A stretch of 64,000 bases of DNA from an uncultured Chloroflexia bacterium (GCA_963774265.1 CAVZDU010000010.1:32001-96000), one strand, 5' to 3'. Positions 2,545 through 27,707 are shown, counted from the first letter of the stretch. A program made the numbers and translations. The notes: a model not told the origin generated them from the sequence alone.

Positions 2545-2551
2545 TTTTCTA

Positions 2552-2881
2552 TTACTCCTCACAATCCATTCGGCGATGGCGTATGGGTGTCGACCGGCAT
2601 TCATCCTCAAATGCGTCATGGAGGTGCCACACCGTATGCGTCACCTTCACAGGATTGCCAGCATCTGTCGAGCCCGCTTCACCCAGCTCGACCAACAGAG
2701 GGTGTCTGTCAATCCAGGTGAGCGCCAGTGCGCAGACGAAGACCGCAATGCCCGCCAACAGGATGGGATGCCGCAACCGCGTCGTGGCAGTGTCAACGAT
2801 CGCTATCAGCGCAATCATCAATGGTAGGAGTGCATAGAGTCCCAACCATTTGGAGAGTCGTAGCTTACCCATGGATACCAC
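2552..2881 (-). CDS. Hypothetical small membrane protein (2 predicted TM helices) between kdpB and kdpC
   Basis: 109-aa ORF that fills the kdpB-kdpC gap on the operon strand. It has two hydrophobic stretches ([33 protein letters not shown]). Confidence 0.6.
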
Positions 2882-2884
2882 CGC

Positions 2885-5002: not shown

Positions 5003-5018
5003 GGCAATACCTGTCTTG

Positions 5019-6764: not shown

Positions 6765-6853
6765 CCGAATTTCTCCGGTTTCAACAGGGCCACGAACAGA
6801 TAGAGCAGTAGCGACAGCGTAATCAGGCCCACAACAACATACATCACGCTCAT
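6761..6853 (-). CDS. kdpF: K+-transporting ATPase subunit F (30-aa membrane peptide)
   Basis: Manual translation [30 protein letters not shown] carries the YLxxALxxPExF KdpF signature. Translationally coupled to kdpA. Absent from the ORF track because it is too short. Confidence 0.92.
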
Positions 6854-6948
6854 ACGCCACTCCCACTCAGCCGTTCGCACAAAGAAACGAACCCCCAACT
6901 GGCGACAAAGAAACCCAGCGCCAGGCCTATAAACGCGAGGTCAGCCAT
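6850..6948 (-). CDS. Second small hydrophobic peptide upstream of kdpF (32 aa)
   Basis: Manual translation [32 protein letters not shown]. It has a GGAGG RBS 7 nt upstream, and its stop overlaps the kdpF start (ATGA). Confidence 0.75.
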
Positions 6949-7244
6949 CGAGACGCCTCCATCCGGCCGCGACCATTGACCGTTAAGATGTCTCCACGAT
7001 ACATCTGAAGCGCGTCAATTGGGGGACAAGAAAAGAAAGTGCGATGTCAAGGAGTCGTCATGCCTGCTCAAGGTCATCCCGAGAAGCGGCGCTCACGGCA
7101 GCGACCGCGCCGGGGACCGAGCAATGCACCTTCTCGCCGGCTGAGATGCGAGTTGGATTGCCCGGTGCGTCCAGTTGTGCGATAATCCCGTCGTCTTCCA
7201 GGTAACTATGCCTATCATGAACTCCACGAGGGCAGGAGCGTTTG

Positions 7245-8600
7245 ATGTCAACTCTACTTCTCAAGCACGCGGACTTGCTCGTCACCATGGACGGGGAGCG
7301 CCGACGCCTTGCGGACGGTGGATTGTACGTGCGGGACAACGAAGTCATCCAGGTGGGACCGACGCCCGAATTGCCCGAAACCGCTGACACGGTCATTGAC
7401 GCCCGCGGCATGATTATCCTGCCGGGTCTGATCAACACGCATCACCATCTGTATCAGACCCTGACCCGCTGCATGGCGCAGGACTCGGTTCTGTTCGGCT
7501 GGCTCACGACACTGTACCCGATCTGGGCCAGGCTGACGCCGGAAGCAGTCTACGTTTCGGCCAAAGTCGGCCTGGCTGAACTGCTGCTGTCGGGCTGCAC
7601 CACTTCGAGCGATCATCTCTACGTCTACCCCAACGGCAGCCGGATCGATGACGAGATCCAGGCAGCGGTTGAGTTGGGCATCCGTTTCACGGCGACGCGC
7701 GGGAGCATGAGCCTGGGTCGAGTCGAAGGGTGGCCTGCCGCCGGATAGCTGCGTCGAAGAGGAGGACGCCATCCTGGCCGACAGCCGACGTGCGATCGAG
7801 CAATTCCACCAGCGCGAGAAGTTCGGCATGGTGCATGTGGCCCTGGCGCCGTGTTCACCGTTCAGCGTCACGGGCGACTTGATGGCTGAGAGCGCAGTCC
7901 TGGCCCGCTCCTACGGCGTCAGACTTCACACGCACTTGGCTGAAACGATGGACGAAACCAAGTTTTGCCTCGCGAAGTTCGGTGCAAAGCCAGTGGACTA
8001 CGTGGCATCGTTAGGCTGGACCGGCGAGGATGTCTGGCATGCACATTGTGTGACACTTAACCAGATCCGAAATCGCGTTGTTCGCGCGCACGGGCAGCGG
8101 CGTGGCACACTGCCCGTCATCGAACATGCGGCTGGCCTCCGGCATTGCACCGGTGCGCGCCATGCGCGATGCGGGCGTGCGGGTTGGTTTGGGCGTCGAC
8201 GGCTCGGCGAGCAACGACAGCAGCCACCTGTTGGCCGAAGCCCGGCAGGCGATGTTGCTCCAACGGATGGTCGGACCCAATCCGGGAGCGCTGGGCGCAC
8301 AAGAAGCGCTTGGAGATCGCTACGCTCGGCGGCGCCAGCGTATTGGGCCGGCCGGATATCGGAGCATTGGCGCCCGGCATGGCCGCAGACCTCATCGGCT
8401 ACCGCCTGGAGACGCTCGATTTCACGGGCGCGCTACATGATCCGCTGGCCGCGCTGGTGTTCTGCACGCCGCCGAGGGTCGACCTCAGCGTGGTCAACGG
8501 TCGAGTGCGCGTGAAGGATCAACAGATCGTCGACCTGGATCTTGGCGCGTTGGTGCGGCGGCACAACGCGATCAGCCGGCAGATGCTGCGCAACGAGTAA
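7245..8600 (+). CDS. Metal-dependent amidohydrolase of the 8-oxoguanine/purine deaminase type (three apparent +1 indels)
   Basis: [69 protein letters not shown] and ATLGGA motifs are spread over ORFs 7242, 7828, 8078 and 8145. Frame breaks near 7718, 8064 and 8310. Confidence 0.85.
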
Positions 8601-8679: not shown

Positions 8680-9534
8680 ATGGTGATTGAACAGGGCGCG
8701 CCAGCGCAGGCGGAGATCGACCGCATCATCCGTGCTGCCCTCGCCGAGGACATTGGGGACGGCGACGTCACCACCGATAACACCATCCCGGAGGACAGCC
8801 GGCTCACTGGCCGCTTCCTGGCCAAGGAGACCGGCGTAGTTGCCGGCGTCGAGGTGGCGCGGCGCACGTTCGCGCTGCTCGATCCGCGCGTCAAGTTGCG
8901 GGTTCTCATTGATGACGGCCAACTCGCTGAACGCGGCCAGATCATCGCCCAAGTGGCCGGCCCTGGCCGCGCCATCCTCTCAGGCGAGCGGGTCGCGCTC
9001 AACTTCATGCAGCGGATGTCGGGCATCGCGACCGCCACGCGGCGTTACGTGGACGCGGTTGCCGGCACACGCGCGGTCATCCTCGATACCCGCAAGACCG
9101 TTCCCGGCCTGCGGTTGTTCGATAAGTGGGCTGTACGATTGGGCGGTGCGGCCAACCACCGCATCGGGCTCTACGACATGGCGCTCATCAAGGACAATCA
9201 CATCGCGGCGGTCGGCTCCATCACCGAGGCGGTGCGCCGCGTGCGCGCTGGCGATCCGAGCGGCCGGCCTATCGAGGTGGAAGTGACGAATCTTGCGCAG
9301 CTTGCCGAGGCGCTCGAACTCCCCATCGACCGCATCCTGCTGGACAACATGACGCCCGCGATGATGGCTGAGGCCGTGCGTATTGCCGGCGGGAGCATCC
9401 CGCTCGAGGCCTCCGGCGGCGTCAACCTGAAGACGGTGCGCACTATTGCCGACACGGGCGTGGACTACATCTCCGTCGGCGCGCTGACCCACTCGGTCGA
9501 TGCGCTCGACATCAGCTTGGATTTGACGAATTGA
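8680..9534 (+). CDS. nadC: Nicotinate-nucleotide pyrophosphorylase (carboxylating), quinolinate phosphoribosyltransferase
   Basis: EDIGDGDVTT, ERVALNF, DTRKTVPG, HRIGLYD, IKDNH, IEVEV, LLDNM, EASGG and ISVGALTHS. Confidence 0.96.
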   Translation: MVIEQGAPAQAEIDRIIRAALAEDIGDGDVTTDNTIPEDSRLTGRFLAKETGVVAGVEVARRTFALLDPRVKLRVLIDDGQLAERGQIIAQVAGPGRAILSGERVALNFMQRMSGIATATRRYVDAVAGTRAVILDTRKTVPGLRLFDKWAVRLGGAANHRIGLYDMALIKDNHIAAVGSITEAVRRVRAGDPSGRPIEVEVTNLAQLAEALELPIDRILLDNMTPAMMAEAVRIAGGSIPLEASGGVNLKTVRTIADTGVDYISVGALTHSVDALDISLDLTN

Positions 9535-9592
9535 AGATTGAAGATACCCGTTCCAGGTTCAATCTGGAATCTGCAATCTGTAATCTTCAATC
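9531..9592. repeat. Intergenic heptamer repeats in inverted arrangement (GATTGAAGAT...ATCTTCAATC)
   Basis: ttgaagattgaagat (9531-9545) is followed by caatctg-gaatctg-caatctg-taatcttcaatc. 9536-9545 is the reverse complement of 9583-9592. Confidence 0.7.
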
Positions 9593-9606
9593 ACCCTGGA
9601 GGGGCT

Positions 9607-10684
9607 ATGACAACGCTACAACCGATCGATCGGACGTGGATGTCCGCCGATGATATCTACGCTGAGCTCAAGGCGCGCATTGGCGAGTACACACCGGATT
9701 TTGAGTTGCGCGTCAAGGCCGAGCTGGCCTATGAGATCAACCAGCTCAAGCTCGAGCGCAATGCCGTCATTCTTGGGCACAACTACATGGAGCCGGCCCT
9801 CTTCCACTCGGTGCCCGACTTCGTGGGCGATTCGCTGGACCTCTGCGCGCAAGGCCGCCGCAACAGACAAGGACGTGATCGTGTTCTGCGGCGTGCGATT
9901 CATGGCCGAGACCGCCAAGATCCTCAACCCGACTAAGACGGTGCTGATCCCGTCGCTGAAGGCGGGCTGCTCGCTGGCGGCCAGCATCACCGCGGACGAT
10001 GTGCGCAGCCTGAAGGCGCGCTTCCCGGGCGTGCCCGTGGTGACCTACGTGAACACCTATGCCGACGTCAAGGCCGAGAGCGACGTCTGCTGCACCTCGG
10101 GCAATGCGGTCGCAGTTGCAAAGCGCTTGGGCGCCGACACCTTCATCTTCCTGCCGGACGAGTACCTGGCGCGCAACGTGGCGCGCGAGATCCGGCAAGC
10201 ACATCATCATCCCGCGCAAGCTGCCCAACGGAGAGCTGGAAGTCGACACGAACCGAGCCCTACGACATGGTCGGGTGGGGCGGCCGGTGCGAGGTGCACG
10301 AGAAGTTCAGCGTGCGCGATATCGAGGCCGTGCGCGCCCAGTTCCCCGACGTGGTGATCCTGTCGCACCCCGAGTGCAGCCCGGAGGTGGTGGCCGCGTC
10401 CGATTTCTCCGGCAGCACGAACGCCATGATCCGGTACGTCGAGCAGACTGCAGGCCCCGCGCTATCTGCTGTTGACCGAATGCTCGATGGGCGAGAATGT
10501 GGCCGCGGCGAACCCGGACAAGGAGATGCTGCGCCTGTGCAGCGTTCGCTGCCCGCACATGAACCAGATCACCCTTGAGATGACGCGCGACGCGCTCAAA
10601 TACATGCAGTATGTGACCGAGGTGCCGGAGGAGATTCGCGTCCGCGCCTACCGCGCCGTGCGGCGGATGCTCGATATCGGATGA
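9607..10684 (+). CDS. nadA: Quinolinate synthase A (four apparent +1 indels)
   Basis: [62 protein letters not shown] and CPHMNQITL, with the three [4Fe-4S] Cys present. The motifs are spread over successive frames. GGAGG RBS before ATG 9607. Confidence 0.92.
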
Positions 10685-10698
10685 GCCTCCTTTCGATG

Positions 10699-10736
10699 AC
10701 ATTAAAGAACGCGCCAGGCGGCGCGTTCTTTAATGT
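10699..10736. terminator. Perfect 17-bp stem hairpin after nadA, probable (bidirectional) intrinsic terminator
   Basis: ACATTAAAGAACGCGCC-AGGC-GGCGCGTTCTTTAATGT. Confidence 0.8.
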
Positions 10737-10871: not shown

Positions 10872-11624
10872 ATGATCGTTCGCCGCATGAGCCGGTCGGA
10901 AGAAGTCGAGCGGGCGCTCCTGGATCAACTGGAGTCGCTTGCCGGTCTTGATGGTCGTCTGCCTACGGAAGCCGAGATCGCCGGGATGTTCGGCGTCAGC
11001 CGCGGCACAGTTCGCGCGGCGGTCGGAGCGTTGGCGACGCGCGGACTGGTGGTGCGGAGGCAGGGCATGGGCACCTTCCTCAACCATATCGCCCATCTGC
11101 GCAACCCCATCGACCAGGCCATCGACTTCTGCGACGTCATTGCACGCAACGGCCGCGAGCCCGGGCGCCGATTTGTCAGGACCGCCATCGAGCCTCCTGG
11201 TCCTGAGGCCGCGGCTGCGCTGGGATTGTTTGACCAGCCTGCGCTCATTCGCCATACGATCTTCACGGCAGATGGCAACCCCGTCATATACTGCGTGAAC
11301 ACGCTCCCGCTGGCTATCGTCACACCTACACTTGCGGAGCGGATCGTCGCCGACCCTGTCATCTCCGAGCCGCTTTACGACTTTCTCGAGAGGGAATGCG
11401 GCCAGCGGCTGGAGTACCACGCTTCCACGATCTGGCCGGCCCTGGCCACTGACTGCAACATGCTTGAGCCGGTCTGCCATCCGCTCTCGCCTGTGTTGGT
11501 GATCGAGGAGACCGGCTTCAACTCGAGTGCGTTGCCCATCCTGCACTCTCGTGAGATGTACCCGGATGCCTTCATGCGTTTTGAGATGATCCGACGTCGA
11601 GGCCGCTCCGTTGAGTGCAACTGA
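10872..11624 (+). CDS. GntR-family (HutC/UTRA type) transcriptional regulator
   Basis: RLPTEAEIAGMFGVSRGTVRAAV...RRQGMGTF winged HTH and a UTRA-like C-terminal domain. Confidence 0.9.
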   Translation: MIVRRMSRSEEVERALLDQLESLAGLDGRLPTEAEIAGMFGVSRGTVRAAVGALATRGLVVRRQGMGTFLNHIAHLRNPIDQAIDFCDVIARNGREPGRRFVRTAIEPPGPEAAAALGLFDQPALIRHTIFTADGNPVIYCVNTLPLAIVTPTLAERIVADPVISEPLYDFLERECGQRLEYHASTIWPALATDCNMLEPVCHPLSPVLVIEETGFNSSALPILHSREMYPDAFMRFEMIRRRGRSVECN

Positions 11625-12861
11625 CGCAGCGGCGCAACTCACGCCGACCGCGCTGCGTCGCGACGAGGTTGGTCTGCTCGCGCGTATCTTGCCGGCCCGT
11701 CTGCTGCTGAACGCCCAGTTTCGCTTGGTCTATCCATTTTTGCCCGCTATTGCGCGCGGCCTCGGCGTGCCGCTTGAAACCGCAGCACTACTCATCGCGT
11801 TTCGCGCGGCCTTCGGCGCGATCAGCCCCTTGTTTGGCCTCCTCGCTGACCGGATCGGGCGCAAGCCGCTGATGGTCGTGGGCGTGGCAGCCCTGGTTCT
11901 TGGCGCGGTCGTGGTGGCCTCTGGCCAGGGGTTCGGCGTCGTCTTGCTCGGCTTTGGACTGTTGGGCATCGCGCAGTCGGCCTATGATCCCGCCATGCAG
12001 GCTTATGTCAGTGACGTCGTGCCGCAGGAGAGGCGAGGCCGTGCCCTGGGCATTGTGGAACTTTCCTGGGCTGGATCCTGGCTGATCGGTGTGCCCGCGA
12101 CCGGCTTCCTGATGGCACGCTGGGGGTGGCAATCGCCTTTCGTAGCGATCGCGGTTCTGGGTTTTTTGTGCGTCTTGCTGACGTTGACCATCAGGGAAGT
12201 AGTGCGTCCTCACCTGCACTACGTTGCACGCAGCGAGGCGCAAGCGTCGACTACGCCACTTCGTGGCTCTGCTGAGAATGCTGGGCTGCCTGGTGCCGTG
12301 CTGCCCCGGCCGGTTGTCTTCGCCCTCGCAGCCAGTGCGCTGATTCTCTTTGCCAACGAAACCCTTTTTCTCGTCTACGGCGTCCTCATGGAGGAGCGCT
12401 TCGGCCTGACGCTGGGTGCATTGGGCGTGGCCTCGATCGTGGTCAGCCTGGCGGAGTTGACTGGCGCGAGCGCGGTCGTGGCCTTGGCCGATCGGATGGG
12501 CAAGCGCCGGTCGCTGATCATTGGCTTGTTGTTCAACGCAGTGTGCTTTGCCCTGCTGCCGCTCACTGGCGTTGCCCTGCCCATGGCCCTGGCGGGGCTT
12601 GCCGTCGTCGCGCTGACGTCCGAGTTTTCGGTCGTGACCTCGATACCCTTGCTTTCCGGACTGGCCGATCACTCACGCGGACTGGTCATGGCGTTGCGGA
12701 CCGCCCTCATGTGGGGTATGGTCATCATCGCTTCATTCGTCGCACCCCGGCTGTGGCAAGCGTTCGGTCTGCCAGCAGTGGCGGCAACGTCAGCGGCTTC
12801 CGTTCTGCTGGCCGCGCTGATCGTGTGGCGCGGCATCCAGTCGGACACTCTTTCACTCTGA
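11611..12861 (+). CDS. MFS transporter
   Basis: About 12 hydrophobic segments, motif A GLLADRIGRK repeated as ADRMGKRR, and ERRGRALG. Confidence 0.9.
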   Translation: MSATDAAAQLTPTALRRDEVGLLARILPARLLLNAQFRLVYPFLPAIARGLGVPLETAALLIAFRAAFGAISPLFGLLADRIGRKPLMVVGVAALVLGAVVVASGQGFGVVLLGFGLLGIAQSAYDPAMQAYVSDVVPQERRGRALGIVELSWAGSWLIGVPATGFLMARWGWQSPFVAIAVLGFLCVLLTLTIREVVRPHLHYVARSEAQASTTPLRGSAENAGLPGAVLPRPVVFALAASALILFANETLFLVYGVLMEERFGLTLGALGVASIVVSLAELTGASAVVALADRMGKRRSLIIGLLFNAVCFALLPLTGVALPMALAGLAVVALTSEFSVVTSIPLLSGLADHSRGLVMALRTALMWGMVIIASFVAPRLWQAFGLPAVAATSAASVLLAALIVWRGIQSDTLSL

Positions 12862-12900
12862 TTCGCACATCACGTATCACCACCCAAGGAGGCGTTGTAC

Positions 12901-14273
12901 ATGCGTAGCAACTGGTTACCCGAGATCGTCAAGCGGGCGCAATCCGGTCCCTACATGAAGGAGTCCGACTTTGACCTGAAACTGACCCGGCGCATCAAGG
13001 AGTTGGTCCGGGAGAAGGGCATCAAGTACGATGCCAGTAACCTGTGCCCGGCGGACGACGACATGGCCGATCGCGTCTGGGAAGCGGGCCTGCAACTCTT
13101 CGTCGAGATGGGCGCATACTGCCAGTCCACCGAGCGCTGCATCAGATTCACGCGCGCGACGAAGTGTTCGAGCTTCTGCGCCAGGAGCCGGGCGCGGTGA
13201 CACTCGGCACGGGCAAAGACGCGGTGGTGATGCGGCATCGCGGGGTCGAGGATACCCAACGCGCGATCATGCACTCCGGTCCCACCGGTCTGCCCAGCAG
13301 CGAGAAGCACCATCCGTTGATCCTGCTCTCCTGCGCACAGGAGCCGTTGGTCGACTGCCTCGGCGCAGGCTCCGTCTCCACGTATTTCGGCGAGAAGATC
13401 CTGCCGGGCACACCGCTGGAAATTCTCGGCGCGCGCCGCGATGCCTCAGTGGCACGCGAGGCGGTCCGCATGGCTGGTCGCCCTGGCATGCACATTAATG
13501 ATGTCGCAGTGCCTCTTACGTGTGCGGGCAAGATGGCGGCGTGCGATCCCCAGACCGGCCTGCGGCCCTCCGACGGGTTCCTGGTCTCCCAAATGGTCGA
13601 GCTGAAGACGGACTTCGACCAGCTCTCGCGCGTCGCCTATCTGAAAAGCGTCGGCATGGTGAACGTGGACCTGATGACGCCGCTGATCGGCGGCGTGGGC
13701 GGCGCGGCGCCCGGAACGGCGGTGGTCTCAGTGGCAGATCACCTGCTGGGCGTGGTGCTCTACGACTCCGACTATCACATGTTCTCGCTGACCCACCTGC
13801 ACTACGTGAATAACACTGATCCGCTGGGTCTGTGGGTGGAGTCGATGGTCGGACAGGCGCTGGCGCGCAACAGCAAGATCGTGACGCTGAACGATATCTA
13901 CGTCGTCTCCGGCCCCGGCACGAAGGAACTGTTCTACGAATGCGCAGCAGGAGCGGTCGTCACGACTGTCTGCGGATTCAACATGCAGGGCGCGGGCACC
14001 ACGGGTGGCTTCTTCGCCGATCGTGTGACCGGCCTGGAGGCGCGCTTTATCGCCGAGGCGTCGCGCGCGTCGCTGGGCCTGACCCGTCAGGACGCAGCCC
14101 AACTCGTGCAGCAGATTCTGCCTCGCTACCAGGCGACCATCACCAGCCCGAACCGCGGCCGGCCGTTCAATGAGGTGTACAACGTCGAAACCGTGCAGCC
14201 CACTGCGGAGTGGCTCGACATGTACTATGCCGTGAAGGAAGACCTGCGTGGCATGGGCTTGAAGCTGGCGTAG
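12901..14273 (+). CDS. mtmB: Monomethylamine:corrinoid methyltransferase (MtmB)-family protein lacking pyrrolysine, copy 1 (one apparent indel near 13155)
   Basis: ADRVWEAG, FTRDEV, LGTGKDAV, SGPTG, MAGRPGM, SQMVELKTD, GPGT, TGLEARF, FNEVYNVETVQPTAEW and LRGMGL match the MtmB pattern. The Pyl-equivalent codon is AAT (13497-13499). AAGGAGG RBS. There is an extra GC in a CG dinucleotide run. The symbol denotes family, not proven substrate. Confidence 0.85.
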
Positions 14274-14302
14274 CCCGGCCCATTATCTTAGGAGCAGACC
14301 AA

Positions 14303-14962
14303 ATGAGCATTTCTGATGACATCAAGAGCCGCCTTTCCAATGCGCTCATCGACGGCGACGCGGACCTTGCCGAGGAGGCCACGGTCGAGGCGCTGGGGGC
14401 CGGTGCGGATCCGGTTGCGCTCATCAACGACGTCATGATCCCGGCGTTGACGGTGGTTGGTGACCAATTCCAACGCGGCGAGGTTTTCCTGCCCGAGTTG
14501 ATGATGGCGGGCGATGCGGCGCAACGCGTGTCCAATCACGTTGAGGCGGCCATCGTAGCGCAGGGTAAGACCACCGAGCCGAAGGGCACGGTGGTGATCG
14601 GCACCGTCATGGGTGACATCCACGACATCGGCAAGAACATTGTGGTGACTATGCTCAAGGCGCACGGTTTCAAAGTCGTGGACCTGGGCCGCAATGTCAC
14701 ACCGAGCACCTTCCTGACCGCCGGGCAGGAGAATAGGGCGGACGTCATCGCCATGTCATCCCTGATGACGACCACCCGGCCCATGATCGAGAACACCATC
14801 AATCTCTTCGGCGAAGTCGGCGCGCGCGATAAGTTCAAGATGATCGTGGGCGGCGGCTGCGTGACCGAAGAGTGGGCTGCGACCCTCGGCGTGGACGGCT
14901 ATTCGCCTGATGCAGTGGGCGCGGTCGAGCTGTGCAAGAAGTTCTCTGCCCGGGTGTCTTGA
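14303..14962 (+). CDS. Methyltransferase cognate corrinoid (B12-binding) protein 1
   Basis: N-terminal cap (GEVFLPELMMAG) plus GDIHDIGKNIV (DxHxxG), DLGRNV, SSLMTTT and VGGG. Confidence 0.93.
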   Translation: MSISDDIKSRLSNALIDGDADLAEEATVEALGAGADPVALINDVMIPALTVVGDQFQRGEVFLPELMMAGDAAQRVSNHVEAAIVAQGKTTEPKGTVVIGTVMGDIHDIGKNIVVTMLKAHGFKVVDLGRNVTPSTFLTAGQENRADVIAMSSLMTTTRPMIENTINLFGEVGARDKFKMIVGGGCVTEEWAATLGVDGYSPDAVGAVELCKKFSARVS

Positions 14963-14987
14963 CAATGTCCGTGTGGCCGCATATAGT
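14959..14987 (+). promoter_or_regulatory. Near-consensus internal sigma70 promoter overlapping the stop codon of corrinoid protein 1
   Basis: TTGACA (14959-14964), 17 bp spacer, TATAGT (14982-14987). Confidence 0.65.
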
Positions 14988-15034
14988 GGGGCGCAACTCC
15001 CTTTCTGCGGTCCTCTCTTTTTGGCAGGTGACCT

Positions 15035-15718
15035 ATGGATCAATCAGGCAATCAGTCGTCGGAGATGCGGGCTCGTCTCCGAAGCGCAATCGAGGGACTG
15101 GATGAGGCCGACGCGGTAGCCCTTGCTCGCGAGGCGCTGGCGGCCGGTCTGTCGCCGCTGGACTTCTTCAGGGCGGTGATTGAGCCGGAGCTGACCGCGA
15201 TCGGCGACGCCTTTTCCCGGCTTGAGGTCTTCTTGCCCGACCTGATGCGTGCGGGCGTCATCGTCAAGGCCGTGCAGAGCGAGGTGCTGGAGCCCGCCAT
15301 TCGACAGTCGGGCGGCGCCAGCACTTCGGAAGGTGCGGTGGTGATCGGCACGGCCCAGGGCGACATTCACGACATCGGCAAGAATATGGTTGCCCTGATG
15401 CTGCAGGTCAATGGCTTCCGGGTGACCGATCTGGGAACGAATGTGTCGACGCAAGCGGTTCTTGACGCCGCGCGGCGGGAGAACGCGGATATCATCGCGA
15501 TGTCATCGCTGCTCACGACGTCCCTTCCCTTCGTCAAGGATGTGTTGGCACGGCTGGACGCTGCGGGCGAGCGGAAGCGGTTCATGGTGATTGCAGGCGG
15601 CGCGCCGGTGACGGCGGAGTGGTCGCAAGCCGCGGGGCTGGACGGATTTGCGGAAGATGCTGTGGAAGCCGTGTCCATGTGTCGCGGCCTGATGGCGCGG
15701 CGCAAGGGGGCGGCATGA
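15035..15718 (+). CDS. Methyltransferase cognate corrinoid (B12-binding) protein 2
   Basis: LEVFLPDLMRAG, GDIHDIGKNMV, DLGTNV, SSLLTTS and GGAPVT. Confidence 0.93.
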   Translation: MDQSGNQSSEMRARLRSAIEGLDEADAVALAREALAAGLSPLDFFRAVIEPELTAIGDAFSRLEVFLPDLMRAGVIVKAVQSEVLEPAIRQSGGASTSEGAVVIGTAQGDIHDIGKNMVALMLQVNGFRVTDLGTNVSTQAVLDAARRENADIIAMSSLLTTSLPFVKDVLARLDAAGERKRFMVIAGGAPVTAEWSQAAGLDGFAEDAVEAVSMCRGLMARRKGAA

Positions 15719-17097
15719 GAAACACTACCCGTTTACTCGACGTGCTTGACCGGGCCGAAACCGGTCCGATCGTCGAGGAGCTCCAATGGGATATGCAGAT
15801 CGTGCCGCACGCCGTGATGGGCCTTCTGGCCGAATACAAGATCAAGATGCCCGCCGTAGCCGAGTCTGTGGTGACCACAGATGATGCCCTGGCGGATCGG
15901 CTCTTCGAGGCCGGCTTCCGCCTTGCCGAGCAGCTCGGCGCGTTCTGTGTCAGCACCAGCCGGCGGATCCAATTCACCCGCGAGGAGATTCGAGCGGCTT
16001 TGGAGGTCGCGCCGGTCGAAGTGACCATCGGTGAGGGCAACGACCGGGTCACGGAACGTAAGCGGAAGGTCGAGGACCGCCTGCCGCCGTTCATCAAGGG
16101 TGGCGGGGTCGGTACGCCCCTTCCGGAGGACCTCTATCTGCCGGTCACACAGTCCTACGCGCAGGAGCCGTTGATCGATGCGGTCATCAACTGCACATTG
16201 AGCCACGTTTATGGCCGTGAGCTGCGCAGCCGGACGCCCTGGGAGGTGCTGGCTGCATGGCATGAGATCGAGCTGTCCAAGGCGGCATGTAAGCGCGCGG
16301 GCCGGCCGGGCCTGGCCCTGGGCTGCGTAGAGAACGCGGTCTCGGAGATCGGCGAGTTATCCGGCACGTCGCACGGCGGCTTCAGCACCCAGGATTGGCA
16401 TCACATCGCCATGATCTCAGAGTTCAAGACCGATTACATGGCGCTGAGCAAGCTGGCGCACCTGGTGCGCACCGGCAGCGTGATCCACGCCTTCTATAAC
16501 ACCATCTACGGCGGCTCATGCGGCGGGCGGGATGGCATGGCGCTGGCGATCGTCTCGGGCTGCATCCTGCTTCAGATGCTCTACATGACCAATACGCACT
16601 CGGTGTCGCCCGCGCATCCCTTTTATGACAACGACACGACGCCGGAGATCCTCCAGGCCATCAGCCTGGCCCAGCAGGCGCTGGCGCGCAATTCCCGGCT
16701 GATGACCGACGTGGTGATCACCCCTGTGGGTGGTCCCGGCACGAAGACGCTGCTCTACGAGTGCGCGGCGATGGCGATCATGTCGGCAGCCTCGGGCGCG
16801 ACCGGCCTGATCGGCCCGCGCTCCGCAGCCGGCGTCAATATCGCGCACGTGTCAGGGCTGGAGGCGCGTTTCACGGCCGAGGTGGCGCGTGCGGCATCCG
16901 GCATGTCGCGCGGCGATGCCGATGGCATCGTCCGCCTGCTGGTGGACCTGTACAAGCCTGACCTGAACAAGCGGCCCAAGGGCCAATCGTTCCAGGAGGT
17001 GTATGATGTGGTGACGGTCAAGCCGCGGTCCGCGTGGCTTGAGACGTACGAACAGGTGAAGGGCGAGCTCCGGCATATGGGATTGCCGCTCGCTTGA
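15715..17097 (+). CDS. mtmB: MtmB-family methyltransferase lacking pyrrolysine, copy 2
   Basis: ADRLFEAG, IQFTREEI, GGGVGTP, SYAQEP, TPWEVLAA, AGRPGLALGCVE, EFKTD, GPGTKTLLYE, SGLEARF, FQEVYDVVTVKP and MGL. The Pyl-equivalent codon is GGC (16321-16323). The ATG overlaps the previous stop (ATGA). Confidence 0.9.
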   Translation: MRNTTRLLDVLDRAETGPIVEELQWDMQIVPHAVMGLLAEYKIKMPAVAESVVTTDDALADRLFEAGFRLAEQLGAFCVSTSRRIQFTREEIRAALEVAPVEVTIGEGNDRVTERKRKVEDRLPPFIKGGGVGTPLPEDLYLPVTQSYAQEPLIDAVINCTLSHVYGRELRSRTPWEVLAAWHEIELSKAACKRAGRPGLALGCVENAVSEIGELSGTSHGGFSTQDWHHIAMISEFKTDYMALSKLAHLVRTGSVIHAFYNTIYGGSCGGRDGMALAIVSGCILLQMLYMTNTHSVSPAHPFYDNDTTPEILQAISLAQQALARNSRLMTDVVITPVGGPGTKTLLYECAAMAIMSAASGATGLIGPRSAAGVNIAHVSGLEARFTAEVARAASGMSRGDADGIVRLLVDLYKPDLNKRPKGQSFQEVYDVVTVKPRSAWLETYEQVKGELRHMGLPLA

Positions 17098-17129
17098 AAC
17101 GTGCACATACGCACATATAGGAGGAGAAC

Positions 17130-18199
17130 ATGTTCAATCGAGTGATGGTCGTGCTCATGGTCGTTGCGCTGGTCCTAACGGCATGCGCGCCGGCCGCTGC
17201 CCCCACGCAAGCGCCTGCACAGGCCGCGCCAACCACGGCCCCTGCTGCGCCCGCGCCAACCAAGGCGCCTGAAGCAGCCGCTCCCGCGGCAGACAAGGGC
17301 AGCCTGGCCGTAATTCTGACCGGCCCTTGGGACGACAACTCCTGGAACGAGGCGGGGTACACCGCCGCGCAGGAACTCGGCAAGCAGGGCGTGAAGATCG
17401 CTTACTCTGAAAACGTGTCCGATGCCGATGCGCCGCGCGTGCTCCGCGAGTATGCCGACAAGGGCTTCCAGATGATCATCGCACACTCCTTTAGCTTCCA
17501 GGACGCCACGTTCCAGGTGGCGACGGAGTACCCGAAGGCCAACTTCGCCTGGGGTGGCGGCATCAAGAAAACCGCCAAGAACGTCGCCGACTATGATCAG
17601 CCGTTCTATCAGGCAGCCTTTCCCGTCGGCGTTATCGCGGGCCACATGAGCAAGACGGGCAAGCTGGGAGCGCTTTATGGCTTCGACATCCCGGTGTGCC
17701 ACGCGATGGGCGAGGCGCTGCTGGCCGGCGCCAAGACCGTCAACCCGAATGCGCAATTGATCGTGACAGCGGTGGGCGACTGGGTGGACGTGGCTAAGGC
17801 TAAGGAAGCCGCGCTGGCGCAGGCCGACGCGGGCGTCGACTTCTGGGTCGAATGTGGTGAGGGCCCGGCTCTGGGCACCATCGAGGCAGCTAAGGAACGC
17901 GGTGGCTATGTAACCGGCTACGTCGGTGACATGACTGAGAACGGTCCCGATGTCGTCCTGACGAACATCATGTGGGACCTGGTGCCCATGTTCAGCAAGA
18001 TGCTCGAGCAGACCCTCGACGGTTCGTTCGACAACCCATGGTACAACTACGGTGTGCCCCAGGGGGCATTGAAGATCAAGTACAACGATGCCTTGAAGAG
18101 CAAGATCCCCCCGAGGCGCTGGCTGCCGCGGAGAAGGTTTTTGAGGATATTAAGTTGGGCAAGTTCGAAGTGCCCTTCGTGGGCGAAGCAGCGAAGTAG
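17130..18199 (+). CDS. BMP-family (purine/nucleoside-type) ABC transporter substrate-binding lipoprotein (indel near 18110)
   Basis: Lipobox LTAC, Ala/Pro/Thr linker, GPWDDNSWNEAGY, HSFSF, SKTGKLG and GDWVD. The true C-terminus (PEALAAAEKVFEDIKLGKFEVPF) is in the frame of ORF 17972-18199. Confidence 0.88.
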
Positions 18200-18240
18200 C
18201 ATCGCAGCGCAAGGGCACACCTTGCGCTAAGTCGGAGTAA

Positions 18241-18342
18241 GCCACAGAGGACGCAGTGCGCACGGAGATCAGGAGAGACCAGCCGGGCAGGACCCCTGCT
18301 CGTTTCTTGCACCATCTCTGAGTTCTCAGTGCCCTCTGTGGC
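18241..18342. repeat. REP-like imperfect inverted repeat between the binding-protein and ATPase genes
   Basis: GCCACAGAGG...GAGAT and ATCTC...CCTCTGTGGC arms. Confidence 0.6.
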
Positions 18343-18369
18343 TTCGATCCGTGCAGGAGGCGTTCTGCG

Positions 18370-19916
<1,547 letters not shown>

Positions 19917-19920
<4 letters not shown>

Positions 19921-20991
19921 CGGCAGTCAAGATCGAGCGGAGCCGTACTGCGCAGGATGGCGCTCCCGCCTGGCTGCTCACCCTTGGCGCACCGCTGATC
20001 GGTGTGGCTGCAGGCCTGCTCATTGGCGCGCTATTAATCCTGCTTGCCGGCGCAGACCCGATCAAAGCGTACGCGGCCATGATGCGCGGTGCGTTCGGGG
20101 GCCGGCGGCAGATCGAAGAGACGCTGCTGAAGACTGCGCCGCTGCTGCTCATGGGGTTGGGGCTGACTGCGGCATTCCGCGGCGCGCGTATGGAACATCG
20201 GCGGCGAAGGGCAGTACTATATGGGAGCCCTGGCCGGCGGCGCCGTCGCGCTGAATTTTGCTGACCAATGGCCGCGGGTGATCTTGATCGTGGTTATGCT
20301 CCTGGCAGGCGTGCTCGGCGGCGCGCTATGGGCTGCGCTGGCGGCTCTTTTCAAGATCCGTCGCGGCATCAACGAAATCATCAGCACCCTCATGCTAAAC
20401 TACATCGCAATCCTCTTTATGGAGTACATGGCGCGCGGTCCTCTTCAGGAACCGGGAGGCTATCTGCCTGAGAGCGCCCAGTTGGCGGCTGCCGCTCGCA
20501 TGCCCGCGCTCTTTGGGAGCCGAATTCACGTTGGCGTCATCATCGCGCTGCTGATGATACCTGTTGTATATGCCCTGCTCTGGTCGACCCCCCTGGGATT
20601 TCGCCTGCGTGCCGTGGGCTCGCGATCGAGCGTTGCACGTTATGCGGGCATCAAAGTCGAGCGGCTTATCTTGTTTGTGCTCATGTTTTCCGGTGGGCTG
20701 GCAGGCTTAGCAGGCATCATCGAGGTGAGTTCGCTGCACACGCGGCTCAAGGGGAGTATCTCTGGCGATTATGGCTTCAGCGGCATCCTGGTGGCGCTCC
20801 TGGGCCGGATGCACCCCGTTGGTGTAGCGGTCGCAGCTGTCTTCTTTGCAGCGTTGACGATCGGCGCACAATCCATGCACGTGGTCTACCAGTTGCCGGT
20901 CACCCTTGCAGGCGCGGTGCAGGCGGTTGTCGTGCTTTGCGTCCTGGCTGCCGACGCCATCGCCCACGGCAAGTTTCACAGGGGGCAGTGA
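19917..20991 (+). CDS. Nucleoside ABC transporter permease 1 (indel near 20185)
   Basis: WNIGGEGQ is restored across the frame break. INEIISTLMLNY, GFRLRAVG and GYGF/DYGFSGILVALLG motifs. Confidence 0.88.
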
Positions 20992-21980
20992 TGGATTGGA
21001 GCCTTGTCCTCAACTGGACCTTTGTGATTGCGCTCTTCACCGCTGCCATTCGCCTGGCTGTGCCGGTGCTGCTCGCCACACTCGGTGAAATCGTGACCGA
21101 GCGTTCGGGCGTCATGAACCTGGGACTGGACGGAGTGATGGTTGTGGGCGGTGTCTCTGGCTTCCTGGTTGCCTACTTCCTGCAAAGCGGCCCCTTGGCG
21201 GGGCTCAGCCAATGGCTGGGTCTCCTCGCAGGGGCGGCAGCAGGTATGCTCATGGGGGTCATCGTCGCGGTTTTCGCGGTGACCCTACGCGCGGACCAGG
21301 TGATCACCGGTGTGACGCTGGTCGTGTTCGGCCATGGGCTCGCCAACTACATCTACCGCCAGCAGTTCAGTTCGCTGACCGCGCGCACGAACGGCCTGCC
21401 GCCCTATGAGGTGCCCCTGCTCAGCCGGATCCCGGTCGTGGGCGATATCCTCTTCAAGCACGATGCGACCGTGTACATCACGGCGTTGCTGGTGGTCGTG
21501 GTTTGGTTCTTCCTGTCGCGCACAACCTGGGGCCTGAAGATCCGTTCGGTCGGTGAGAATCCTGCCGCGGGTGAAACATCGGGCCTCAAAGTTGGCGCGG
21601 TGCGCTATGCCGCGGCGCTAATCGGCACAGCGCTGGCCGGCTTCGGTGGTGCGGTGCTCACCGTGGTGCAATTGCGCATGTTTCGCGAGGGCATCATGGG
21701 CGGCCGTGGCTGGATCGCCGTCGCGCTGGTAATCTTTGCGCGCTGGAAGCCCGGTCTGGCACTCGTGGGCGCGCTGCTGTTCGGCCTGGCCGACGCGGTT
21801 CAGTATCGTATTCAGGCGCTCAGCCAGGTCGGGCGCGGGGCAGGGACCATTCCCTACGAGTTCTTGCTCATGCTACCATATGTCCTGACCATCCTGGCGC
21901 TCCTGGCTCGCAGCAATCGCCGGGGACAGACGCAGGCGCCGGAGGTGTTGGGCCGACCGTACGTCAAGGGTGAGCTCTAA
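20991..21980 (+). CDS. Nucleoside ABC transporter permease 2
   Basis: LGEIVTERSGVMNLGLDG, ADQVITG, GLKIRSVGENP, GRGWIAVALVIF, LPYVLT and APEVLGRPY. Confidence 0.93.
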   Translation: MDWSLVLNWTFVIALFTAAIRLAVPVLLATLGEIVTERSGVMNLGLDGVMVVGGVSGFLVAYFLQSGPLAGLSQWLGLLAGAAAGMLMGVIVAVFAVTLRADQVITGVTLVVFGHGLANYIYRQQFSSLTARTNGLPPYEVPLLSRIPVVGDILFKHDATVYITALLVVVVWFFLSRTTWGLKIRSVGENPAAGETSGLKVGAVRYAAALIGTALAGFGGAVLTVVQLRMFREGIMGGRGWIAVALVIFARWKPGLALVGALLFGLADAVQYRIQALSQVGRGAGTIPYEFLLMLPYVLTILALLARSNRRGQTQAPEVLGRPYVKGEL

Positions 21981-22015
21981 TTCAACGCCGAATTGCAGCA
22001 ATGGAGTAAGCAAAA

Positions 22016-22828
22016 GTGACTAGAATCAATGAATACCACCAGCCACCGAACCTCGTAGAGGCCCTGGCTTTGCTGGGTCGGAGCCATCCCATCACACGCC
22101 CCCTGGGCGGCGGCACGCACTATCGCCGGGGTTGCGGCTGGCCAGAGGCCGTTGTCGATTTGTCGGCCCTGAAACTCGACGGCGTCACACAAGGGGAAAA
22201 CGCATGGGCGATCGGGGCGACCGCGACGCTCGAACGGCTTGCGGCTGCCGAAGAGCTTCCCGCCGCGCTGCGCCGGGCTGCGCTCCGGCAGGCGCCGCGC
22301 AACAGCCGCCAGCGCGCAACGGTCGGCGGCGCGATTGCCACGAGGGACTCTGGCACGCTGCTCGTCTGTCTGCTTGCGCTCGATGCCCGGCTCATGGTGG
22401 AGCCCGCCAGCCGGCTCATTCCGCTTCAGTCATATCTGCAAGAGCCTGAGGAGAGCGGTCACCTGATCACCGCCTGTTTTCTTCCCAACGGACGCACGTG
22501 TGCATTCGAGGAGATCAGCCGGACGCCTTCAGACGCGCCGATCCTCGCCGTTGCGGTTGGGGCGGAAGTCGGAGCGACCGATTTGCGCGGCGTTCTAGCT
22601 GCCGCTGGCGGCGCGGACCAACCGGCTGCCGTAGTGCCCGGCGCCGTGCAATTTCTTCAAGCGGACGTTGACCACGAGATCGCTGCGTTGGCGGCGGCCA
22701 TGACTCAAGCGCCGTGGCGCGACGACGGGCGAGGCACTGCGGCATACCGCACGGCCATGACGCCTATCCTGTTGAGGCGTGCCATGGAGTCGCTTCTGGC
22801 CTCGCAGGAGGTGTCCCATGCAGGTTAA
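22016..22828 (+). CDS. FAD-binding subunit of a xanthine-dehydrogenase-family molybdoenzyme (YgfM/CoxM-like)
   Basis: YHQPPNLVEAL, LGGGT, IGATATL, RATVGG and DDGRGTAAYR. Directly upstream of the Mo subunit. Confidence 0.82.
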   Translation: MTRINEYHQPPNLVEALALLGRSHPITRPLGGGTHYRRGCGWPEAVVDLSALKLDGVTQGENAWAIGATATLERLAAAEELPAALRRAALRQAPRNSRQRATVGGAIATRDSGTLLVCLLALDARLMVEPASRLIPLQSYLQEPEESGHLITACFLPNGRTCAFEEISRTPSDAPILAVAVGAEVGATDLRGVLAAAGGADQPAAVVPGAVQFLQADVDHEIAALAAAMTQAPWRDDGRGTAAYRTAMTPILLRRAMESLLASQEVSHAG

Positions 22829-25800
22829 TGTTCATGTCAACGGCCAGCCGCTGGTGTTGGCCGGCGAACCCGGCATCACTCTGCTGGACGCACTGCGTGG
22901 AGCCGGTTTCTTCAGCGTCAAGCGCGGCTGCGACCATGGTGAGTGTGGCGCATGTGCGATATTGCTCGATGGCAAGCAGGTGAATTCGTGCCACGTATTG
23001 CTGGCCCAGGTCGATGGCTGCTGCATCCAGACCGCTGAGGGACTGGGTGAGGCCGCGGAGCAGGGATGGCGGCACACGGCCGGGCTACACCCGCTGCAAC
23101 AGGCATTTATCGAGTTGGGCGCGGTCCAGTGTGGCTACTGCACGCCGGCCCAATTGTTGGCAGCGCAGGCGTTGCTTGATCGTAAGGGCTATGGGGGAAC
23201 TGATCCGCAGCCGGTCAGCGAGGCCGAAGTGCGCGAGGCTCTGTCAGGTGTGCTCTGCCGCTGCACCGGCTACGCCAAACCGGTCGCGGCGGTGTTGAAG
23301 GCGGCCGCGCGTCTGCGCGGCGAAGAGCCACTGGCCGGCGGTGGCACGGCGCAGCCTAAGGATGCGGGCGGCATACCGGTTGCCCTCGATTTTGCAGGGG
23401 GCGAACCTCGCACCGAGGGCCTGCCCGGCCCTGAGCCGGCCCGGGGCGGCGTCATCACCCGGACGGAGGCGCCTCCCGTGCTGTTGGTTGCAGCCGTCAG
23501 CGAGGAGCTTCGCGTAGTCGGCAAGTCCGTCACAAAGGTCGACGCCGCCAAACTTAGCCAGGGCAAGCCGGCATTCACCGACGATCTCGAGATGCGCGGC
23601 ATGTTGATCGGCAAGATCATGCACAGCCCGGTGGCCCATGCGCGTATCAAGTCCATTGACGTCACGGCTGCACGTCAACTGCCTGGCGTAGCCGCTGTGC
23701 TAACGCATAAGGACTTGCCCCGCGTCGCCCACTCTACCGCCGGTCAAACGCATCCGCTGCCTTCTCCGCTGGATACGTTCTCGCTGGACGAGAAAGTGCG
23801 CTTCGTCGGCGACCGCGTGGCGCTCATTGCGGCCGAATCTGAAGAGATCGCTCTGGCCGCGATGGAGCTCATCCAGGTCGAGTACGAGGAGCTTCCCGCG
23901 ATCATCGACCCGCGCGATGCACTCAAGCCCGGCGCATCGATCATCCATGACGAGCCGGACTTTGTGGATTTCGCAGAATCGGATCGGACGCGCAATCTGG
24001 CTGCTCATATCTTCGTGGACATCGGGAACGTGGACCAGGGCTTTGCGGAGGCCGATCACATCTTCGAGGGCGAGTATTTCGTTCCAAAGGTGCAGCAGGC
24101 CTCCATCGAACCACACGTAGTCATCACCTATTGGGACGAGGACGACCGGTTGGTGGTCCGCACCTCCACGCAAGTGCCGTTCCATGCACGGCGCATCCTG
24201 GCGCCCATCCTGGGCCTGCCTGTCAAGCGCATCCGCGTCATCAAGCCTCGTGTCGGCGGTGGGTTCGGCGGCAAGCAGGAAGTGCTCATCGAAGACGCAG
24301 CCGCTCACTTGACCATCGCAACCGGCCGGCCCGTTCGCTTGGAGTATACGCGCGAGGAGGAATTCATCGCCGCGCGCTCTCGTCACCCGATGCGGGTGCG
24401 ACTCAAGACTGGTGTGACGGCGGATGGTGTGATCACGGCCAACGAGATGCACGTCCTTTCAGATACCGGCGCCTATGGGTCGCACGCAATGACGGTGGCC
24501 GGCAACACCGGACACAAGGCAATGGCTCTGTATGTCGGTGATGGCCCGTACCGGCAAAACCCCAATATCCGTTTCACGGCAGAGGTGGTTTATACGAATA
24601 CGGCGCCGTCCGGCGCATTTCGCGGTTACGGTGTGCCGCAGGGTTACTTCCCCTTGGACACACAGATGGAGCGCATTGCCCGGGCGCTCGAGATGGATCC
24701 GCTGGCGTTCCGCCTGAAGAACGCGGTGCGCGCGGGTGAGGCCCAGCCATTCTCCAAGGCATGGTCCGAAGGCCGTGAACCGGTGCCCGAGTATATCGAG
24801 ACGTGCGCCCTGGAAGAATGCGCGCATCGCGGGGCAGAGCTGATCGGGTGGCGCGAGAAGCGGGGAAACAGGAATTGGCACGCGGTGCCCGGCCGTCCCA
24901 ATTTGCGCCGCGGTGTCGGCGCCGCCTTGGCCATGCAGGGCACGGCCATCCCCTACATCGACATGGGCGGTGCGTCGCTCAAGATGAACGACGACGGCTC
25001 CTTCAACCTGCTTGCCGGCGCCACGGATATCGGCACCGGCTCAGATACGATATTGGCACAGATGGTCGCCGAGACGGTCGGTTGCAATGTCGAGGACATC
25101 GTCGTCTACTCATCGGACACTGACTTTACCCCCTTCGATGTTGGGGCGTATGCCTCGTCAACCACGTATGTCTCAGGCGCAGCCGCCACACGGGCCGCGC
25201 AACAAGTTGCCGAGCAGATTCGCGAAGTGGCAGCAGCATTGCTGGGAGGTGAAGTGACGCCCGCTGAGATCCGGTTGGCCGACCGCCGCGCCTGGGCGCC
25301 GGATGGGCACAGCGTCACGCTGGAAGACGTCGCTTTGCAGTCGCTGCACAAGGCCAATCAGCGCCAGATCATGGCCGTCGCCTCGTTCAATTCGCCCGTG
25401 TCTCCGCCGCCTTTCGCGGCCCAGTTTGCCGAGGTGACGGTCGACATCGAGACCGGCGAAGTTCGTGTGCAGAAGTTCGTCACCGTTATGGACTCCGGCG
25501 TAATCGTCAACCCGGTGGCCGCGACCGGCCAGGTGGAGGGCGCGGTGTCTCAGTCGCTCGGCTATGCCTTGTGCGAGGAGATGCCCTATGATAGTGCGGG
25601 CCGGCCTCTCATGCATGATCTGCGGGACTATCACATCTTCACCGCGGATGAGATGCCTGAACTCGTCACTGAGTTCGTGCCGACCGTCGAGCCCACGCAT
25701 CCATATGGTGTGAAAGCGGTGGGTGAAGTGCCCATGGATGGCGTGGGTCCGGCAATCGCTAACGCCATCTACGACGCAGTTGGCGCCTGGATCAACGAGT

Positions 25801-25850: not shown

Positions 25851-25856
25851 CATAAG

Positions 25857-25887
25857 GACCTTCGAGGTCTCCGAGACCTCGAAGGTC
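25857..25887. repeat. REP-like palindrome
   Basis: GACCTTCGAGGTCTC-C-GAGACCTCGAAGGTC, with 15-bp perfect arms. Confidence 0.8.
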
Positions 25888-25908
25888 TTCTCACAGGGGA
25901 CAGGTAGC

Positions 25909-27705: not shown

Positions 27706-27707
27706 GA

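Follow-up and report, generated by a model that had tools for sequence, protein, structure and literature searches.

Two MtmB-like genes in a Chloroflexia gene cluster

This study concerns a 64,000-nucleotide stretch of DNA from an uncultured Chloroflexia bacterium (GCA_963774265.1 CAVZDU010000010.1:32001-96000; hereafter the window) and, within it, two paralogous genes of the MtmB methyltransferase family (PF05369), the Methanosarcina barkeri member of which carries pyrrolysine (Pyl) at residue 202. The source is an Anaerolineae/Anaerolineales metagenome-assembled genome (MAG) of 10 contigs and 5.5 Mb that is 84% complete. The two genes, referred to below as copy 1 (B1) and copy 2 (B2), lie within a gene cluster that was analysed over positions 10872–27705, all of it on the + strand. 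Related loci are cited by their L numbers and genomes by their G numbers. The core of the cluster comprises the following features.

12901–13158, + strand: N-terminal 86 codons of copy 1 (PF05369 profile positions 5–82), 97.7% identical to the L016 orthologue.
13151–13158, + strand: (CG)4 run with the +2 frameshift of copy 1, two surplus bases relative to 6/6 aligned orthologues.
13158–14273, + strand: C-terminal 371 codons of copy 1 (PF05369 positions 81–450, E = 3.9e-78), with the Pyl-equivalent codon AAT (Asn) at 13497–13499; dN/dS 0.04–0.07 against L016 and L017.
14303–14962, + strand: corrinoid protein C1 (B12-binding cap and Rossmann domains, PF02607 and PF02310), presumed partner of copy 1; start set from the orthologue alignment.
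15035–15718, + strand: corrinoid protein C2 (PF02607 and PF02310), presumed partner of copy 2; its stop overlaps the start of copy 2 (ATGA).
15715–17097, + strand: copy 2, intact, 460 amino acids (PF05369, E = 5e-104), with the Pyl-equivalent codon GGC (Gly) at 16321–16323; dN/dS 0.03–0.06.

Both genes are securely full-length members of the MtmB family. The PF05369 gathering score is 25 bits; copy 2 reaches 349 bits (profile positions 4–450), and copy 1 reaches 263.7 bits in its second segment and 53.1 bits (E = 3.1e-14) in its first. No NCBIfam model names either methyltransferase (0 families for both). An earlier note on this DNA, made from the sequence alone, had overlooked that copy 1 is split over two frames at 13158, a break that is considered separately below.

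The pyrrolysine column and the surrounding residues

Both copies were aligned with M. barkeri MtmB1 by phmmer searches against PDB chains (1L2Q/1NTH and 1TV2). Residues 7–457 of copy 2 align almost without gaps with residues 9–456 of 1L2Q (E = 1.3e-75), and the C-terminal part of copy 1 aligns with 1TV2 (E = 7e-54). The MtmB segment AGRPGMGV-X/K-GPE, in which X/K denotes pyrrolysine-202, stands opposite AGRPGLAL-G-CVE in copy 2 and AGRPGMHI-N-DVA in copy 1. Formal alignment thus agrees with the earlier proposal that the Pyl site is occupied by Asn in copy 1 and by Gly in copy 2. The in-frame AAT and GGC codons fill the Pyl column and neither copy contains an in-frame TAG; Pyl-type methanogen genes show one TAG in the same kind of search. 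The residue at this column is shared by the orthologues of each copy, being Gly in 6/6 for copy 2 and Asn in 6/7 for copy 1. The absence of pyl genes, claimed earlier for the window, held in a genome-wide search for PylD and PylS in the 84% complete assembly, which returned no PylD match and, for PylS, nothing better than 21 bits (cut-off 178).

The substitutions extend beyond Pyl itself. As the earlier note had read them, the segments matching SHEVSQ and DEQMP of MtmB align with GFLVSQ and DLMTP in copy 1 and with WHHIAM and AFYNT in copy 2. With the M. barkeri residue numbering counted from the phmmer alignment of copy 2, the individual positions compare as follows.

MtmB E205: Glu in B2, Ala in B1.
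MtmB H228: His in B2, Phe in B1.
MtmB E229: His in B2, Leu in B1.
MtmB E259: Phe in B2, Leu in B1.
MtmB Q260: Tyr in B2, Met in B1.

Copy 1 therefore keeps none of these five residues and copy 2 keeps only E205 and H228. The motifs X-G-P-E, H-E and E-Q-M-P are kept in all six Pyl-encoding MtmBs from distant methanogens, which were found with a degenerate pattern containing an in-frame TAG plus a family scan, and for this reason the exchanges in B1 and B2 are regarded as real departures from the Pyl type. Residues E205, H228, E229, E259, Q260 and Q333 reportedly lie near Pyl in the crystal structure of Hao et al. (2002). A literature search for E205, E229, E259 and Q333 in MtmB returned nothing relevant.

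Compared with M. barkeri MtmB (1L2Q, 1NTH, 1TV2-4), the two proteins share the Pfam family (PF05369), a near-gapless end-to-end alignment, the AGRPG segment before the Pyl column and an adjacent corrinoid-protein gene. They differ from it in having no UAG or Pyl, in the replacement of E229, E259 and Q260, in a bacterial host and other gene neighbours, and in an overall identity of only ~31–36%. The strong divergence between the two copies noted earlier is confirmed by an identity of ~36%.

Each copy belongs to a type with a pocket signature of its own. Among 21 sequences of the B2 type (at least 51% identity), Gly occupies the Pyl column in all 21, W-H-H stands at 227–229 in 20 and E205 is present in all 21; the motif G-C-V-E / W-H-H / x-F/Y-Y is kept in many sequences down to ~44% identity. 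In the B1 type (at least 56% identity, 27 sequences) the Pyl column holds Asn (17/27), Glu (7/27) or Ser (3/27), followed by D-V/N-A, and Leu is found at the E259 column in 27/27. To judge from this conservation, the B1 and B2 signatures are subfamily-defining pockets under selection. A metal site in B2 formed by Cys204, Glu206, His229 and His230 was considered and dropped; Cys204 is Val in 5/21 of the same B2-type sequences.

Family phylogeny

At 50% identity, the matches of an exhaustive search with B2 fell into 924 clusters with a threshold of E ≤ 1e-3, into 539 with E ≤ 1e-10 and into 212 with E ≤ 1e-30. Across 125 aligned full-length members (the 121 of 150 listed representatives with at least 430 amino acids, plus four further sequences) the Pyl column is hypervariable, with L in 21, G in 15, I in 13, V in 13 and 14 other residues. 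That each copy has a different residue in place of Pyl thus reflects the family as a whole and is no peculiarity of this pair.

A midpoint-rooted FastTree phylogeny (LG+gamma) was calculated from 152 sequences: the representatives, six Pyl MtmBs, 20 non-Pyl Methanosarcinaceae homologues picked by score class among the matches listed, two B1 orthologues, two B2 orthologues and a third paralogue (B3) from the same genome; a seventh Pyl MtmB, L124, was left out. The Pyl MtmBs group together in a single clade (support 0.998), and three non-Pyl representatives fall within it or next to it. Adjoining this clade are methanogen non-Pyl classes, labelled mA–mD. Their Pyl column is occupied by Met in 10/13 sampled sequences and by Phe or Val in the rest, and mA, mB and mD contain the cysteine of a 'GQCP' motif, which is Val in mC. 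These classes probably contain MtqB, a non-Pyl family member from the literature, the clade of which was placed through a scan of Methanosarcinaceae. B1, B2 and B3 fall into three separate well-supported clades in the half of the tree opposite the Pyl clade. On this phylogeny the two copies are old paralogues, not recent duplicates, and lie near neither MtmB proper nor the presumed MtqB group.

The same tree bears on the supposition in the earlier note that loss of the bulky Pyl had opened a larger pocket. None of the near relatives of either copy has Pyl, the Pyl genes group together on the opposite side of the tree and the Pyl column is hypervariable; such a loss is not supported. The sequences thus give no sign that B1 or B2 descends from a Pyl enzyme, and the midpoint root leaves the direction of change unproven.

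The third paralogue, B3 (G000:C2:581606-582952; L003:1477-2865), has Tyr at the Pyl column and is also free of Pyl. Its neighbours are the end of a molybdenum hydroxylase gene, a corrinoid-protein gene and a DHO_dh-family gene, and a MeTr-like gene lies ~24 kb away at C2:557804-558553. The family is greatly expanded in some Anaerolineales (24 PF05369 matches in G011 and ten in G001), and tandem arrays of at least three MtmB-like paralogues with differing pocket signatures are frequent there, as in CAZOUN010000001.1 (L065, L079 and L080) and at L074, L077 and L089. The non-Pyl paralogues of Methanosarcinaceae fall into at least five score classes, and an 'mC' paralogue (Met) lies beside an opposite-strand Pyl mtmB in G116 (C1:2098279-2099613 next to 2099766-2101115) and likewise in G103, G085 and G057.

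Gene neighbourhood and its conservation

The remaining genes of the cluster, and one gene near it, are as follows.

10872–11624, + strand: GntR/UTRA (HutC-type) regulator (PF00392 and PF07702), first gene of the cluster; syntenic in L016 and L017.
11611–12861, + strand: MFS transporter adjoining copy 1 (PF07690, E = 4e-41); also a neighbour of copy 1-type genes in L016, L017 and L020.
17130–18230, + strand: BMP/PnrA-family ABC substrate-binding protein (PF02608, E = 7e-46); C-terminus out of frame from ~18108.
18370–19920, + strand: ABC transporter ATPase with two ABC domains (PF00005); syntenic at related loci.
19917–21980, + strand: two ABC permeases (PF02653 twice), the first frame-broken at ~20181.
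22016–22828, + strand: FAD-binding subunit of a molybdenum hydroxylase (PF00941; TIGR03312 and pucC-like, both under cut-off).
22818–25850, + strand: fused 2Fe–2S and molybdopterin subunit of the xanthine dehydrogenase family (PF00111, PF01799, PF01315, PF02738 and PF20256).
25765–27705, + strand: RACo-type reductive activator of corrinoid proteins (PF14574, PF17651, PF17650 and PF00111; AcsV-like at 419 bits, under cut-off).
7242–8600, + strand: 8-oxoguanine-deaminase-like amidohydrolase in at least two frames (NF006055 on both pieces, E = 6.5e-69 and 2.4e-31); near the cluster and not contiguous with it.

Of a three-component corrinoid system, the cluster contains the corrinoid proteins C1 and C2, adjacent to the methyltransferases, and the RACo activase (25765–27705) downstream. 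C1 scores 180 bits against TIGR02370, under the cut-off, and C2 immediately precedes the copy 2 type at every locus where it was found. The BMP protein has 3s99 and 6pi5 (AtzT) as its nearest solved chains, which we take to bind adenine, and guanine or hydroxyatrazine, respectively. The best NCBIfam match of the fused Fe–S/molybdopterin subunit is XdhA (703 bits against a cut-off of 780). MeTr-like genes, candidates for a second methyltransferase, occur elsewhere in this genome, for example at C1:972067-972858, with 56% identity to the in-cluster MeTr of L020.

The order GntR–MFS–B1–C1–C2–B2–BMP–ATPase–two permeases–FAD subunit–XdhA-like subunit is fully retained in L016 and extends as far as RACo in L017; partial synteny is seen in L018–L021, L027 and L030. 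A gene-context survey with 3 kb flanks covered 74 related loci, mostly from Chloroflexota and also from Acidimicrobiia, Oscillospiraceae, Bacillota and Bathyarchaeia. The B1 and B2 types occur together in 31/74 loci, in the orders B1–C1–C2–B2 and C2–B2–B1–C1. This recurrence, with both orders represented, agrees with a single pathway that has two steps or two substrates. Of the 74 loci, 58 contain a corrinoid-protein gene and 44 contain one or more of three heterocycle-linked genes: a BMP/ABC component (28 loci), a xanthine-dehydrogenase-family subunit (13) or an 8-oxoguanine-deaminase-like gene (six). RACo occurs in 12/74 loci and MeTr-like and MtaA-like genes in five each. The earlier suggestion that the two enzymes differ in specificity gains support from their separate clades, their clade-specific conserved pocket signatures, the adjacent corrinoid protein that each possesses and their co-occurrence in these 31 loci; B1 and B2 very probably do differ in this respect.

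Individual loci vary the arrangement. In L020 a MeTr-like pterin methyltransferase and a Rieske protein follow the permeases, and L026 has B1 and B2 with a single corrinoid gene. In a lineage comprising L025, L039, L040 and L044, only C2–B2 is present; the next gene encodes an MtaA-like enzyme with a fused thioredoxin-like domain, and CobW comes after it in L025, L039 and L044. After CobW, L025 has a second GntR gene, a BMP-type ABC transporter and an intact 8-oxoguanine deaminase (604 bits against an equivalog cut-off of 532). The fusion of an MtaA/CmuA-like enzyme with a C-terminal thioredoxin-like domain after a B2-type gene (L025:11608-14070, and also in L028, L039, L040 and L044) is a solution for the second methyltransferase distinct from the MeTr-like one in L020, L052 and L053.

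In the window the cluster is flanked by nadC–nadA (8680–10700) and nadB (27702–29276), the stop of RACo overlapping the start of nadB at 27702–27705. L017 likewise has nadC–nadA upstream, beside a DDE transposase (L017:1573-2715), and the cluster looks inserted into a nad gene group. A link to NAD or nicotinate was considered and dropped as coincidental; nad neighbours are seen in the window and L017 and not in L016 or more distant loci.

The reading-frame break in copy 1

The break in copy 1 coincides with the (CG)4 run at 13151–13158; all six aligned orthologues are two bases shorter there, with (CG)3. Without the surplus CG, copy 1 reads FTR-DEVFELL and matches FTR-EEIRAAL of copy 2. Seven public sequencing runs were listed, the best of them containing 0.17 of the sampled words of the window, and no RNA run was among them. 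Contigs from runs X1, X2, X3 and X5 were short, came from relatives mostly no more than 90–95% alike and did not span the stretch; one short contig of a ~89% identical relative (run X5) also has no such two bases at 13151.

Other genes close by are broken in the same manner. Compared with intact L016 and L017 orthologues, nadA (9538–10700) is frame-broken at least twice, the BMP binding protein has lost one base in a C run near 18108 and the first permease carries an additional base near 20181, where the context is CGCG; a further break affects the 8-oxoguanine-deaminase-like gene (7242–8600), the orthologues of which are intact. At least four further genes within ~13 kb are thus frame-broken, three of the breaks falling at C/G-rich runs, a pattern suggestive of systematic assembly indels. 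The two halves of copy 1 show 95–98% protein identity to the L016 orthologue and no stop codons, and dN/dS is 0.02–0.08 for both copies, including both sides of the break, indicating purifying selection throughout. Because other nearby genes are also broken, the halves are so well conserved and dN/dS matches that of copy 2, we regard an assembly indel as the quite probable origin of the break. Apparent pseudogenes in this genome accordingly call for caution.

Copy 1 could instead be a very recent pseudogene or be governed by an on/off switch at the CG repeat, so that only B2–C2 works in this strain. The contrast of (CG)4 in the assembly with (CG)3 in 6/6 orthologues would fit this, and short repeats are natural slippage sites. 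The other breaks within ~13 kb point to assembly indels, however, and the stop-free halves with their low dN/dS (0.02–0.04) and high identity likewise count against a real frameshift, which we consider unlikely.

Proposed function and alternatives

We propose, with a probability of about 0.55, that copies 1 and 2 are two anciently diverged, Pyl-independent first methyltransferases (MT1) of the MtmB family, that each is served by a separate corrinoid carrier and that, within one conserved catabolic cluster of Anaerolineae, they demethylate purine-like heterocycles bearing N-methyl groups. The substrate class taken by itself, which is drawn from gene context, stands at slightly less than even odds, methylguanines or methylxanthines being examples of it. 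We infer the direction of methyl transfer, the pairing of methyltransferases with carriers and the methyl acceptor as follows. The BMP-type ABC transporter would import the N-methylated substrate, and the MFS transporter possibly a second one. B2 or B1 would bind the substrate in a remodelled TIM-barrel pocket and transfer its methyl group to Co(I) of its own carrier (B1 to C1 and B2 to C2), from which a MeTr-like enzyme encoded elsewhere in the genome would pass it to tetrahydrofolate. Carriers that become oxidized would be re-reduced by RACo, and the xanthine-dehydrogenase-family enzyme, together with the 8-oxoguanine-deaminase-like hydrolase, may process the demethylated ring further by hydroxylation and deamination. 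A more specific and distinctly more tentative version is an O2-independent, B12-dependent N-demethylation of methylpurines, in which the ring position attacked, or the methylpurine accepted, would differ between B1 and B2 and the purine set free would pass to the same two downstream enzymes. Conceivable substrates would then be 7-methylguanine and other methylguanines from nucleic acid turnover, or methylxanthines (for example theobromine and caffeine), a suggestion that we hold equally loosely.

Several points weigh against this proposal. Gene neighbourhood is the sole basis for the substrate class, and none of the three heterocycle-linked genes lies within 3 kb in 30/74 loci; these loci are moreover mutually related, so that the counts overstate independence. 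The xanthine-dehydrogenase-like and corrinoid proteins fall under the NCBIfam equivalog cut-offs and their exact activities are uncertain, and nadC and nadA lie between the cluster and the 8-oxoguanine-deaminase-like gene of the window. Domain profile searches found no second methyltransferase, MtaA-like or MeTr-like, within 10872–27705. The only non-Pyl MtmB characterized in the published account, MtqB, acts on quaternary amines (PMC13044021). The improbable case of a genuine frameshift in copy 1 would also count against two working enzymes.

MtqB, which demethylates tetramethylammonium and choline and surrounds its ligand with aromatic residues (Kashyap et al., 2026; PMC13044021), suggests methyltransferases for quaternary amines (choline, tetramethylammonium or betaine-type compounds) as an alternative for B1 and B2. 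All three are Pyl-free MtmB-family MT1 enzymes with a corrinoid protein of their own, MtqB demonstrates that the family handles substrates other than monomethylamine (PMC13044021), and B2 does present the aromatic residues W228, F260 and Y261 where MtmB has S227, E259 and Q260. The clades of B1, B2 and B3 nevertheless lie apart from the methanogen non-Pyl classes in which MtqB is presumed to belong, and neither copy has the Met/Cys signature of those classes, having Asn or Gly instead. The gene context, moreover, consists of a BMP-type rather than a betaine/choline-type transporter and of purine-type enzymes, not of a methanogenic coenzyme M pathway. Action on quaternary amines accordingly appears improbable, and true monomethylamine methyltransferases working without pyrrolysine appear far more so. 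Pfam membership and the routine 'mtmB' annotation would suggest the latter, and MAG surveys count such Anaerolineae genes as monomethylamine genes (PMC11264602); the residues kept in all six Pyl MtmBs are, however, entirely replaced in B1 and reduced to E205 and H228 in B2, and the gene context is unfit for a C1 amine.

A further possibility concerns the division of labour. One copy could be the second methyltransferase (MT2), passing the methyl group from carrier to acceptor, with B1, a carrier and B2 forming a full three-component system; the earlier note had allowed for one enzyme running in the acceptor direction. The lack of an MtaA-like or MeTr-like gene in the cluster of the window and the arrangement in L026 would fit, and Holland et al. 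interpreted a member of the MtmB superfamily as 'a likely MTII' (PMC9768040). Yet relatives with both types also have an in-cluster MeTr-like gene (L020, L052 and L053), the B2 type without B1 stands beside an MtaA-like enzyme (L025, L039, L040 and L044), two separate carriers are the rule and MeTr-like genes are present elsewhere in this genome. The case for an acceptor role is therefore weak, and we think it quite unlikely.

Demethylation of N-methylated heterocycles by two MT1 enzymes, the reading preferred here, can be set beside several described systems. Pyl-free homologues of MtmB are already a published class, so that the central point of the earlier note is not new in kind; the published non-Pyl MtmB tree contains 1,061 sequences, most without an assigned function in that account (PMC13044021). 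What is added here is the recognition of two old subfamilies with pocket signatures that travel together in 31/74 loci, in a recurrent context of BMP transporter, xanthine-dehydrogenase-family, 8-oxoguanine-deaminase-like and RACo genes, and no earlier description of this dual-module cluster was found in the literature searched. Members of the non-Pyl MttB family, such as MtgB (glycine betaine) and the enzymes for carnitine, proline betaine and butyrobetaine, are used with corrinoid proteins and an activase. The MttB superfamily shares the theme of Pyl-free relatives of a Pyl-dependent methylamine methyltransferase with N-methyl substrates of their own (PMC13044021); it is a different protein family with quaternary amines as its known substrates. 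Ga0180325_111810 of 'Ca. Formimonas warabiya' is a bacterial Pyl-free MtmB-superfamily protein with ~30% identity to MtmB and no assigned substrate, which differs in being the protein most induced on dichloromethane in that Peptococcaceae bacterium (Holland et al., 2022; PMC9768040).

For the removal of purine N-methyl groups the nearest parallel is functional. The caffeine N-demethylases NdmA and NdmB are reportedly paralogues that each remove a different purine N-methyl group as O2-dependent Rieske oxygenases; their fold and chemistry are unrelated to those of B1 and B2. A full-text literature search, with most subscription journals outside its coverage, found nothing linking the MtmB family to purine catabolism and no enzyme system for anaerobic N-heterocycle demethylation. 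A 2026 preprint describes anaerobic caffeine N-demethylation, with the enzymes unidentified and the activity credited to methanogens, and reports Anaerolineae and Ardenticatenales as enriched on caffeine (bioRxiv 10.64898/2026.01.06.697959).

Anaerolineae are common in digesters, soils and sediments. If the reading from gene context is true, they hold a B12-dependent, O2-free route for demethylating N-methylated heterocycles; should the methylpurine version also hold, the Chloroflexi branch of the non-Pyl MtmB family would comprise unrecognized anaerobic N-heterocycle demethylases. The family is large (212 clusters at E ≤ 1e-30) and has only one member with an assigned function. A more immediate consequence concerns annotation: 'mtmB' matches in Chloroflexota MAGs have been counted as potential for monomethylamine use (PMC11264602), which is probably wrong because these genes have no Pyl-type features.

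Other features of the window

Two further groups of genes were noted away from the cluster. A kdpA–kdpB–kdpC potassium-transport ATPase operon lies on the − strand at 1972–6866, and a PdtaS-like histidine kinase (GAF_PdtaS and HisKA_2) is encoded at 39148–41294 together with, after it, a response regulator whose output domain is of the RNA-binding ANTAR type.

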